Source of the DNA: Botryllus schlosseri
Lineage: Eukaryota
Assembly (NCBI GenBank): GCA_051294905.1
Contig: CM119371.1
Span: forward strand, 8,806,001 to 8,870,000
Direction: 5' to 3'
DNA length: 64,000 nt
Within the stretch, counting starts at the first letter, position 1. The number at the start of each line of letters is the position of its first letter. The notes below the pieces were generated by a model. The model was not told where the DNA came from and searched no databases. It saw only the letters and a list, made by a program, of their open reading frames with translations. The position numbers and the translations under genes were made by a program. Below, one piece after another: positions 3,651 to 49,088 of the stretch.

Positions 3651-4564
3651 TTATCATAACAATATTTATAGTTGGCTTTGATGATACATGCTAATTATCG
3701 GCTATTTGGTTCCAATGAAGCTTTTGCTTGTGTTTTGATTATATGTAGAGGGTTGCATTTGAAACAGGTGACGTTTTAGAACGCTTTGTTACAAATTTCT
3801 TGTACAATGTTTTAGGCAAATTTCAATTGTGTTCAATCAAATGTGATATAATCATGTCTAAACTGACTAGATAGTTTGAAAAGACATGTAATATGAAGCT
3901 TCTGACGACTTGCACTATAGAGATAGTCGCATAATACGGTATGTAATGTTTAAACCCATCGACATCGTGGTTGGTTCAACAGTTTTAACACGCGGGGTAT
4001 GTATCAGCTAAGCCTGTGGATCGTCTGATCGTCTGATCGTCTATTGTGTAACTATCACTTATTTAAATATATTTGGAATTCGATGCTCTTTTCGAGTTCA
4101 TAACCTGTGACAGTGAAAGACACGTATAATGTAGTTGCCTGAAAACGTTCTCGCTCTATTCAACGTAACTAGCTACTGAGTTTATTTTGCAGCATACTGC
4201 TCCGATAGCTTGTCGGTGTGATTGTGAAAGTGATAGAATTCAACGAATTAAAAAAACATAGTATGTAATGACTTGGTATGATGTAGGTGGTTTTTTCGTA
4301 TTCATGACGTGTTCGACTATTTTATGGTAAGTCATAAGGATGGTGCGAACGTGAGGTGTGCGGACCTGAGATATTTAGAGGCTGATGTTTGCAACCGAAT
4401 CTACACCAGTTGCTTTTCATCGTGTTCCGTGGAGGCTTGTGGGCCCCAGAGCGGGCCTCTGTATCAGGGGTTTCCTGGAGATCGAGACACACACTCAACT
4501 CATACATATGACCTGTGTTGACACGCCCGTCTTGGCTATCATTGGTTGCAGGTATTTAGTAGGT

Positions 4565-5397
4565 AGGGATGGTGTGAACGTGAGGTTCACGTTCGCGTTC
4601 TGTGTGTGAACCTCAGAAATTTAGAGGTTCACGTTCACAAACAAACCTTGGTAGGTTCTGCACTGTGAACCATCTTCATTTATTGCAATTTTCCGCGTCA
4701 TTGTATCATCTTTGGTTTAAACTTTTAGGTCTTTGCAATCCATTTTCGGACCGCTCTATGCAAGGCGCTGGCAGCATAATAAAAATCAACACTAAACGAG
4801 CATGCACCTTGCGAAAAAATTTAAGCTGATTTATAAGCGAAAAATACAGATCATTCTGGAAACCTCGTGTGTTCCGCATAACATTTGTTGTGTCATAAAA
4901 CAAATCTGCCAGATTGGGGTGTTGGCTATTGTTTAACTTGGTTTTGAGATATTTTCTGTAGCAAGTATAAAAACCGTATTCTCAAAAAGATCAGAATTAA
5001 TGCAGTAACAGTCTGACGTCTTGAGAATATATTGTCAAGTCTAACCTAGACCGTTGGAGCGCAAGCTTATATTTCCTTGCGAGTTCTCGTCGACATTGTC
5101 GGCAAAGCGACGGAAGATACACATTTTATGGAATTGTTACAGCATTAGATTGTTCCAGTTGATACATTTGGTGACTCAGCCTGTACTTCAACATTGCAAC
5201 ATAATGTGGTCTGATTCACATCTACGTATGGTCAGCATGGTGTAGATTTGTATATTACGTTACGGAAATGTATGGTTGGAATTAACAATGTGACGGCACG
5301 TGCCATCATTGATGCGTGCTAGCGATCGTGTTGGGAACGTTTGAAAATGATTCGTGTTCAGACGAACCGGAACCTTTTGGGGGTTAGCACCATACTA
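4565..5397 (+). mobile_element. hAT-type MITE, family A (TAGGGATGGTGTGAAC termini), degenerate 3' end
   Basis: Starts tagggatggtgtgaacgtgaggttcacgttcgcg and ends ...gggttagcaccatacta; colinear with 14138-15125. A more decayed 5'-end copy precedes it at ~4336. Confidence 0.75.
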
Positions 5398-5451
5398 CGT
5401 TAGAATTGTTGGATAACAAAACAAAATTATTCCGAGGCAACGAGCATCTAG

Positions 5452-5523
5452 TAGCAGAGGATGGTGTCGATCCATCGACATCCGGGTTACTAGCCCAGTG
5501 CGCTTCCGCTGCGCCACTCTGCT
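5452..5523 (-). tRNA. tRNA gene with initiator-Met body but AGT (Thr) anticodon; functional variant or pseudogene
   Basis: Reverse complement reads AGCAGAG TG GCGC AGCGGAA GCGC A CTGGG CTAGTAA CCCGG ATGTC GATGG ATCGACA CCATC CTCTGCT A. This is a 72-nt cloverleaf with A1-U72, three G-C pairs closing the anticodon stem, and A54/A60, all eukaryotic tRNAi hallmarks. TTTT runs lie about 25 nt downstream. Confidence 0.85.
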
Positions 5524-6489
5524 TACCGGCATGACAGTGCGACTAGAATTAAAACGAGTTCATGCTCTATGAATCAGATCAGGCTTGTCGAATCGAATCG
5601 AGAGACATAGCGGGTTGACAAAGCGGGTTCGACTATCATTTTCCAGTAACACTTATCACTAGACAAAGTTTTTGCAACTTTTGCAACTTTTTTACAGCTA
5701 CCGGGAAGGAGCTTCCTAAATACGAAGAATTTATGTAGTATGGTATTTCAAGCTGTTTGAAGAAGTTTTATTTTTCCACTTTTCGCAGCTTTTCCTATTT
5801 ATTTTCAGGCGACTTTTTATTGCAACTTCGATCAAGTATTGCGCAAAATGTAAAATCGTGATTTAAAAAACACGATGTTTAACTATTTCAACAATTGTTC
5901 TCTCTTTAGTTTTCTCTACAAATAGCAGTGTGATGGATTAGTTGCATGCCGATGTTATCTATGGCGTAATGGCTTGAATGCCAGAAGTTCAAAATCACAG
6001 CAAAGCACGACAGTGCCTGAACAATGTATAAGTGGATCGTTTGTTTGATTCAGTACGCTCACATTTGAAGTCATTTCCTCTTTGACGGACGTTCAGGCGA
6101 GACCGGTGACAATTACATTTTCCCTGGGTCACCTTATCAGGTTATTGATTTAGTTAAACTTGCCAACACCTAGTTTTTCTGCAATGGCTTGGGTCAAATT
6201 TGCAGACCTAGGGGTTTGGGGTGTGGGATTTGACCTGTTTTATGAACTATCACATCGCTGTTTTTTTTGCGATGATTTCTTCATTCCGTTATTTTCTTGC
6301 TGCTTACCGGCAAATCATGTATTATATGCCGGTCTCGCCAGGCCGTCCGTGAAATGGGAAAGTACCAAATTTGACAGCTCTACAGGAGCTGACAGCGAAA
6401 TATTGCCACGCAGGTTTCAAGCATCAAGATCATAAAAATGTAGGCTATTCATGTAACATACCCTGATATATCTAAAATTTTATAAGTGG

Positions 6490-48083: not shown

Positions 48084-49088
48084 ATGAACAGCACTTTTAG
48101 CGCCGAAGGAATGAACCGAGCCGTAGCAGCGTCCAAAATCAGCGATATTGAACACACGGTCGCAGTAGTCCTGTTTGCCTTCCTGACGATTCTAGGCACA
48201 CTCGGAAGTACAACCATGATTGCCATCTTGCTGAAGATGGAACGAACCGCCTTCCACGTCATTCTGATCGGGATGTGTGTTTCGGATATACTGTCAGCTT
48301 GCAACAGCCCATTGTATGTTGTCGTACAAATTAGTTCGGCAAATTTCACATTGCCCCCTTTTCTGTGTTCCGCCACCATCACCATCGATCAATACACCAC
48401 ATTTGGAACACTAGGTCACGTGTTGTTGCTGAGTTACATGAGATTCCGAAATATAGTAGGCGGTCCCATAATTCCGAATCGAAGTAATGGAGATGATGCA
48501 AAACGCTACACAATACTCGTGGTTCTAACGTGGCTATTCTCTGCGTTCATTTCGATCCCCTTTCCACTCGCAATTAGATCTGCTGTGACTCCGCAAGGGG
48601 TCGTGTGTGAAGGTAGGAAAGACACTCATGTAGCAATCAAGTTCATGACAGCGTGTTCAGTAACGGTCGGAGTTATCGTTCCAATTGTGATGATAGTTGG
48701 ATACCGTTCCCGCCTCATCATATTCTTGACAAATAGAACATCTCCGTCAAGCAATCGCGATTCCGCCAAGGAAAAAAATGCGGTCAATCAACTCTTGGCC
48801 ATCGCCGTCACTGTTTTAATCGGATATTGCTGTGAGTACGGAACCAAATTTTACTTCATTTATCGCTGGAAAGCGGGTGTAGACAGATCGAAAATACTCG
48901 TGGCTCTGGCAGCGCATGGTGTCGTGCGTATCACAGAATGCATCAATCCCTTGATTTATTATTTGGGTTCGAAAGAGTTACAGAAGACAGTAACGTCTTG
49001 GTGCAGATCAATGAAGAGACGGAATAGAGTTAGCCCTGACTTCCCCGCTGCGGTATCAACCAAAGTCGAAATTATCACTGAGGATTGA
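48084..49088 (+). CDS. Intronless rhodopsin-family (class A) GPCR, divergent orphan, 334 aa
   Basis: Seven hydrophobic helices; N-terminal NST sequon, TM2 CVSDIL, Cys at top of TM3 and in ECL2, MRF at the DRY position, TM4 Trp, TM7 NPLIYY, helix-8-like SKELQK. Confidence 0.9.
   Translation: MNSTFSAEGMNRAVAASKISDIEHTVAVVLFAFLTILGTLGSTTMIAILLKMERTAFHVILIGMCVSDILSACNSPLYVVVQISSANFTLPPFLCSATITIDQYTTFGTLGHVLLLSYMRFRNIVGGPIIPNRSNGDDAKRYTILVVLTWLFSAFISIPFPLAIRSAVTPQGVVCEGRKDTHVAIKFMTACSVTVGVIVPIVMIVGYRSRLIIFLTNRTSPSSNRDSAKEKNAVNQLLAIAVTVLIGYCCEYGTKFYFIYRWKAGVDRSKILVALAAHGVVRITECINPLIYYLGSKELQKTVTSWCRSMKRRNRVSPDFPAAVSTKVEIITED

Follow-up and report, generated by a model that had tools for sequence, protein, structure and literature searches.

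The window analysed here, a 64-kb stretch of the Botryllus schlosseri genome, contains on its minus strand (5452..5523) a 72-nt tRNA gene that joins the body of an initiator tRNA (tRNAi) to the anticodon AGT. The assignment rests on ARAGORN, on the Rfam family RF00005 and on an identity of 65/72 to the species' own tRNAi. The gene is probably a relic, that is, a solitary and diverged paralogue of that tRNAi which has lost its CAU anticodon and is drifting, and as such it belongs to the known kind of tRNA gene whose anticodon disagrees with its body.

Structure of the gene

ARAGORN called a tRNA-Thr(agt) at 5451-5523 of the minus strand, the sole tRNA in the window, and RF00005 matched 5452-5523 of the same strand over its full length with 56.7 bits (cut-off 29). 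The acceptor stem (AGCAGAG/CTCTGCT) contains A1:U72 and is followed by the discriminator A, and the D stem (GCGC/GCGC) closes a D loop of 7 nt. The anticodon stem (CTGGG/CCCGG) has three G:C pairs at its base (G29-31:C39-41) and holds the loop CTAGTAA. The anticodon AGT occupies 5489..5491 of the minus strand (ACT on the plus strand) and replaces the CAT of the species' own tRNAi through a tandem CA>AG change at tRNA positions 34-35. The variable loop is ATGTC, and the T stem (GATGG/CCATC), which includes A50:U64 and U51:A63, carries the T loop ATCGACA with A54 and A60. Each of the 21 stem pairs is either Watson-Crick or G:U. The cloverleaf has a calculated energy of -27.2 kcal/mol, compared with -26.1 kcal/mol for the own tRNAi, and the unconstrained MFE fold of the gene differs from the cloverleaf (z = -1.98). 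The initial annotation, made from the sequence alone, had described a 72-nt cloverleaf with four paired stems and oligo-T downstream, and had listed A1-U72, the three G-C pairs, A54/A60 and a short D loop as initiator determinants; all of these are present, and the strand, which it had not named, is the minus strand.

The A box is a promoter element of Pol III genes. In the AGT gene, the A-box region (tRNA positions 8-19; 5506..5516, minus strand), TGGCGCAGCGG, is that of canonical tRNAi, and the B-box region (positions 52-62; 5463..5473, minus strand), GGATCGACACC, which would likewise act as a promoter element, departs from canonical tRNAi by one change (A59C). Two T4 runs situated 26-34 nt past the 3' end (5418..5426, minus strand) likely serve as Pol III terminator. 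With A box, B box and T-run undamaged, the gene is probably still open to transcription by Pol III. Two marks of a tRNA pseudogene, a broken cloverleaf and a lost promoter, are thus absent: the stems pair, and both promoter boxes and the T-run are in place. A scan for bacterial-type promoters and terminators found none, a result irrelevant to Pol III.

Descent from the initiator tRNA of the species

The genome searched comprises 495 Mb in 219 contigs. In a DNA search the AGT gene was found once among the best 40 of 61 candidates, and the next best 39 scored matches, all 87-90% identical, are tRNAi genes with the anticodon CAT according to ARAGORN. A search with the 72-mer for further AGT copies, as called for by the initial annotation, therefore returned a single copy within this scope; a lone copy was part of one of the three findings that this annotation had named as speaking against its proposal. 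As isotype comparison we used the identity of the gene to tRNA genes of the same genome: it shares 65/72 positions with the own tRNAi, 43/74 with an own tRNA-Thr(AGT) copy and 48/73 with the own elongator tRNA-Met. Because the identity is highest to tRNAi, the body of the gene is that of the initiator. Body and anticodon of the gene hence belong to different isotypes, as in an alloacceptor shift. Of the earlier proposal that it is a maintained alloacceptor shift derived from tRNAi, the descent is upheld (65/72 against 43/74), whereas maintenance is left unsupported by a single copy with mutant siblings.

Compared with the commonest tRNAi copy, the assembled gene shows seven differences in 72 positions (T25C, G26A, C34A, A35G, A42G, G45T and A59C), and the gene of other individuals shows six, since these have G at position 45. 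The seven include two tandem dinucleotide changes, TG>CA at 25-26 and CA>AG at 34-35, which suggests that they arose in five mutational events. The five differences outside the anticodon are exactly those that had been listed in the initial annotation, and they hold against the own tRNAi as well; G45T, however, is not fixed, G being found in the contigs of runs X4 and X5.

It had further been assumed that the anticodon loop requires three clustered changes. The main tRNAi loop of the species is CTCATAA (with U33), and CCCATAA, the loop which that annotation gave for vertebrates, occurs in only 3/58 members of the tRNAi family; starting from CTCATAA, the switch takes a pair of neighbouring substitutions (CA>AG) and not three changes. 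The CCCATAA copies, which have C33, lie at C4:20237212, C15:16979392 and C15:18475972, and two loop types thus coexist in one genome. CCCATAA is also the loop type of 120/132 initiator matches listed from the metagenome scan described below.

Body changes at positions constrained in initiators

The features A1:U72, A50:U64, U51:A63, A54 and A60 separate initiators from elongators. None of the five body changes touches these discriminators, all of which are kept. Some of the features that define initiators are stated in PMC8450103.

Metagenome contigs were scanned for the initiator anticodon arm with the anticodon left free, which gave at least 127 stretches. Among the 132 matches listed, the anticodon is CAT in 130, CTT in one and TAT in one. 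The initiator anticodon arm with AGT was found in 0 stretches of these contigs, a weak blank given that the collection is not aimed at animals. In the 130 listed eukaryote-type tRNAi with enough flank, a set forced to share the anticodon stem, the bases of the AGT gene recur as follows: C at position 25 in 12, A at position 26 in three, G at position 42 in none, T at position 45 in one and C at position 59 in none. A26, G42 and C59 accordingly occupy positions that are near-invariant in the 130 listed initiators, and U45 is polymorphic in the species. As three to four of the five body changes hit near-invariant initiator positions, the gene appears to have been released from initiator constraint. 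Two of the five changes (C25 and G42) lead towards the own tRNA-Thr, about as many as expected by chance.

Taken as an initiator, the gene has A1:U72, G29-31:C39-41, A54 and A60, and lacks the CAU anticodon that charging by MetRS and the reading of AUG require (AGT instead) as well as G26, A42, G45 and A59. Taken as a tRNA-Thr(AGU), it has the loop CTAGTAA with U33 and A37, identical to that of the own Thr(AGT) genes, so that the earlier identification of CUAGUAA as a tRNA-Thr(AGU) loop was correct; G2:C71 and C3:G70 also match the own tRNA-Thr. The remaining body is not that of tRNA-Thr, with A1:U72 and ATCGACA in place of G1:C72 and a TTCGAAT-type T loop.

The tRNAi family and other tRNA genes in the genome

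A family pattern of 35 places, drawn from the 3' side of the D stem, the anticodon arm and the T stem, matched 58 times in the genome when variable places were left free and at most two mismatches allowed. Fifty-one copies, canonical and near-canonical, carry CAT, so that there are at least 51 initiator genes. Five copies carry CAA, all in one array on contig 8 and with breaks in the anticodon stem, one carries AAT, and one, the gene at 5452-5523, carries AGT. tRNAi-derived copies with other anticodons (5 CAA and 1 AAT of 58) had been named beforehand in the initial annotation as a finding that would speak against its proposal. The CAA copies are located at C8:16825375, 16838169, 16863133, 16864887 and 16867896 and the AAT copy at C14:19278176; for the most part, these initiator-derived copies have stem breaks or deletions.

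Twelve variant family copies were inspected. Four of them are clearly diverged, which together with the AGT gene makes five diverged copies. Canonical tRNAi reaches 62.8 bits with the Rfam model, and the AGT gene (56.7 bits) is only 6 bits lower. The other diverged copies are a solo copy with six substitutions, three of which break pairs (33.5 bits, 29 bits lower), two copies with deletions (44.4 and 43.2 bits) and a copy with three substitutions (57.8 bits). Large arrays elsewhere in the genome hold, according to ARAGORN, further mismatches, namely GTT on a tRNA-His body and TTC on that of a tRNA-Lys(TTT); in the tally of these arrays loci overlap and copies are counted more than once. Given the CAA, AAT, His/GTT and Lys/TTC siblings, mutation of the anticodon belongs to the ordinary course of tRNA gene decay here.

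Canonical tRNAi genes mostly stand head to tail with a second tRNA gene, either tRNA-His(GTG) after 4-8 nt or elongator tRNA-Met(CAT) after 5 nt. A T-run comes solely after the second gene, and the pairs are repeated in large arrays (for example C3:35536968-35537051, C15:16.98-17.01 Mb and C8:16.82-16.95 Mb). Judged by this arrangement, the pairs look like dicistronic Pol III units. Unlike these mostly paired genes, the AGT gene is solo. A lost downstream partner tRNA was considered and rejected, as the 71 nt downstream scored no better than shuffles against the His and Met units (112/500 and 483/500 shuffles as high, respectively).

A pattern made of the Thr(AGT) anticodon loop and T loop occurred at 31 places, compared with 10 for the reversed control. 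A Thr-type 3' half was present at 21 of the 31, 19 of which share the start of the 3' strand of the anticodon stem, and in the pattern loci ARAGORN confirmed Thr(agt) genes whose body is that of a normal elongator. With at least 19 ordinary tRNA-Thr(AGT) genes, the genome has no decoding gap for the AGT gene to fill.

The intact fold as a modest sign of function

The number of pairs broken by the five body changes is zero: T25C turns a G:U into a G:C pair, A42G turns a U:A into a U:G pair, and the other three changes fall on unpaired bases. The earlier statement that these differences break no stem is therefore accurate, all pairs being standard or G:U. We simulated random substitutions on the cloverleaf with a transition weight of 1 to 4. 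Five substitutions left every pair unbroken in 3.3-8.5% of cases, and in 0.8-2.6% nine conserved unpaired bases were kept as well; with four substitutions, the respective values were 6.2-13.7% and 2.0-5.3%. Unbroken pairing is thus a real but modest signal for function, and two circumstances weaken it: the gene was noticed for its folding, and five diverged copies, of which it is one, were looked at.

No RNA run was listed as containing the stretch. RNA run X16, of which approximately 13% was read, gave 0 reads on it and run X7 gave 0 contigs, blanks that carry no weight for or against activity. The CpG observed/expected ratio is 1.10 for the whole window and 1.49 for the flanks of the tRNA, a value reached or exceeded by 7.6% of 250-nt windows. 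Since the window shows no CpG depletion, this ratio is uninformative on activity.

Fate of the product and possible maintenance of the gene

The history that we favour begins with a solo tRNAi gene, which would have lost CAU by one tandem mutation; after that, selection would no longer have held and more changes would have built up. Mutation in transcribed tRNA genes runs 7-10 times faster than across the genome on average (PMC6130373). Once a tandem mutation has taken the anticodon, changes may hit positions that hardly ever vary in working initiators, and the cloverleaf may survive by chance for a while.

According to PMC9976931, MetRS depends on CAU. As CAU is the main methionine determinant, the product of the gene would not be methionylated. 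PMC9976931 also states that ThrRS reads acceptor-stem pairs and anticodon bases, which makes some threonylation conceivable. The product, which would be expected to fold, may be charged weakly by ThrRS: G35, U36, G2:C71 and C3:G70 fit, and at 1:72 it has A:U where tRNA-Thr has G:C. The kept A1:U72, A50:U64, U51:A63, A54 and A60 would bar it from elongation. An initiator body charged with threonine would be expected to bind poorly to eEF1A and to eIF2 alike. As the missing methionine would weaken the binding of eIF2, the product would be predicted to do little or nothing in translation.

It is unlikely, in our judgement, that the gene is instead maintained as an expressed, threonine-charged tRNA with A34 converted to inosine, which would allow ACN starts, act as a minor threonine elongator, or have a regulatory role or serve as a source of tRNA fragments. 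Several observations bear on this and on the relic reading with opposite sign. The structure is whole despite five body changes, with no pair broken, a loss of 6 bits and a slightly stabler cloverleaf, promoter boxes and terminator have been kept, and all three samples seen carry the AGT allele; these points favour maintenance and count against a relic, with their weight lowered by the way in which the gene was noticed. They are set against the single copy of the gene (best 40 of 61 candidates scored), which no relative is known to carry, the departure of positions 26, 42 and 59 from the initiator consensus, the body site that is still polymorphic (G45T), the sibling tRNAi copies with other anticodons and the many true Thr(AGT) genes, all of which count for a relic. 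A path CAT>CGT>AGT would pass through threonine anticodons only, as suits a maintained gene, but CA>AG can also be a single tandem mutation, and the body shows no shift to elongator or threonine features beyond chance.

Published work also points in both directions. Anticodon-mutant tRNAi can start at matching non-AUG codons in mammalian cells (Drabkin and RajBhandary 1998, as cited in PMC11744186), the human initiator tRNA can come to be charged with another amino acid when it is given a different anticodon (lysine for UUU; PMC9976931), and Met/Thr is among the recurrent alloacceptor shifts reported in PMC3923123. That survey of eukaryotic shifts, however, has none that involves an initiator. 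Overall, the young pseudogene that the initial annotation had offered as a fallback fits better than a maintained tRNA.

We see little chance that the gene specifies a natural initiator-bodied (I/A)GU tRNA which is transcribed, charged with threonine and either starts a few proteins at ACN or acts as a regulator. If this were true, the gene would be the first case in an animal of a cytoplasmic initiator whose anticodon had been switched in nature; if active, such a tRNA would be a natural counterpart of the engineered tRNAi that start at non-AUG codons, and the first initiator among the surveyed nuclear alloacceptor shifts. As a relic, the gene would offer a clean example of a large tRNA family shedding copies. 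For annotation, the conflict between isotype and anticodon should be flagged, and the gene should not be counted as a threonine tRNA.

Comparison with known tRNA genes

A human gene with a Met body and a mismatched anticodon, described in PMC8450103, has seven differences, scores high and is expressed at a very low level; according to its authors, it is either silenced, as a pseudogene, or has some special role. The AGT gene shares with it the mismatch between the isotypes of body and anticodon, the number of differences from the parent (approximately seven), the high score and the unbroken cloverleaf. It is unlike the human gene in that its parent is the initiator and not the elongator tRNA-Met and that two anticodon bases are changed and not one; moreover, it is known here from sequence alone and in one species.

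The gene also resembles the alloacceptor shifts of Rogers and Griffiths-Jones 2014 (PMC3923123), in which a nuclear tRNA gene, through a substitution in its anticodon, comes to belong to the box of a different amino acid. Those shifts are defined there by synteny between species, whereas the AGT gene was compared within its own genome. With eukaryotic cytoplasmic tRNAi it has in common A1:U72, the three G:C pairs of the anticodon stem, A54, A60, A50:U64, U51:A63 and 65/72 bases; unlike them, it is without CAU and has A26, G42 and C59, which are rare or absent among the 130 listed initiators. Engineered anticodon-mutant tRNAi likewise join an initiator body to a non-CAU anticodon (PMC11744186, citing Drabkin and RajBhandary 1998). 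These are laboratory-made and overexpressed, whereas the AGT gene is natural and known from its DNA only.

Surroundings of the gene and its state in other samples

The tRNA lies in a unique island of approximately 254 nt (5397..5650), which in the genome search matched itself alone and is bordered by transposon-like interspersed repeats of two families. The repeat on the downstream side of the tRNA (4564..5396) consists of two colinear blocks with 83-88% and 66-76% identity to many copies (best 40 of 4722 first-look candidates scored). For the repeat on the upstream side (5651..6445), the main body shows 70-79% and short fragments up to 87% identity (best 40 of 2706 first-look candidates scored). 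With these repeats only 55 nt downstream and 128 nt upstream, the tRNA could be the tRNA-like head of a SINE or a part of another mobile element, which we consider very improbable: no other copy joins the tRNA to the repeats and the repeat copies elsewhere stop short of the island at 5397-5650 (best 40 scored per repeat search in both cases), and the sequences similar to the tRNA are canonical tRNAi genes alone (best 40 of 61 candidates). Since the other repeat copies scored come without the tRNA, the AGT gene is in all likelihood not a SINE head.

All 24 sequencing runs listed carry the same organism label. Runs X4 and X5 each derive from another sample and another study than the assembly. 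The X5 contig (5446-5627) has a single difference from the window, at 5480. The X4 contigs cover 5350-5650 with listed differences at 5480, 5537, 5550 and 5552; one of them has a fifth difference, near the contig end, whose position was not placed. Neither the anticodon (5489-5491) nor any of the remaining body changes has a listed difference in the X4 and X5 contigs, and the AGT allele is thus present in 3/3 samples seen. That the true gene is CAT and AGT an error of sequencing or assembly, for which the initial annotation had suggested looking for CAT in the raw data, has no observation in its favour, is next to impossible and is refuted as far as the contigs show, as X4 and X5 keep AGT in other samples from other studies.

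The difference at 5480 corresponds on the minus strand to tRNA position 45, at which contig comparison shows T in the assembly and G, the ancestral tRNAi state, in X4 and X5. The ancestral G in the two other samples marks G45T as a variant carried by the individual that was assembled. The X4 variants at 5537, 5550 and 5552, too few to weigh, cluster as expected near a transcribed tRNA gene: all three lie in the first 30 nt on its upstream side, and the following 98 nt have none listed.

At 48084-49088 on the plus strand, the window contains an intronless ORF of 334 aa, whose 7TM receptor domain of the rhodopsin family (PF00001, E 1.9e-17) points to an animal genome. No ORF of at least 70 aa lies within 470 nt of the AGT gene.
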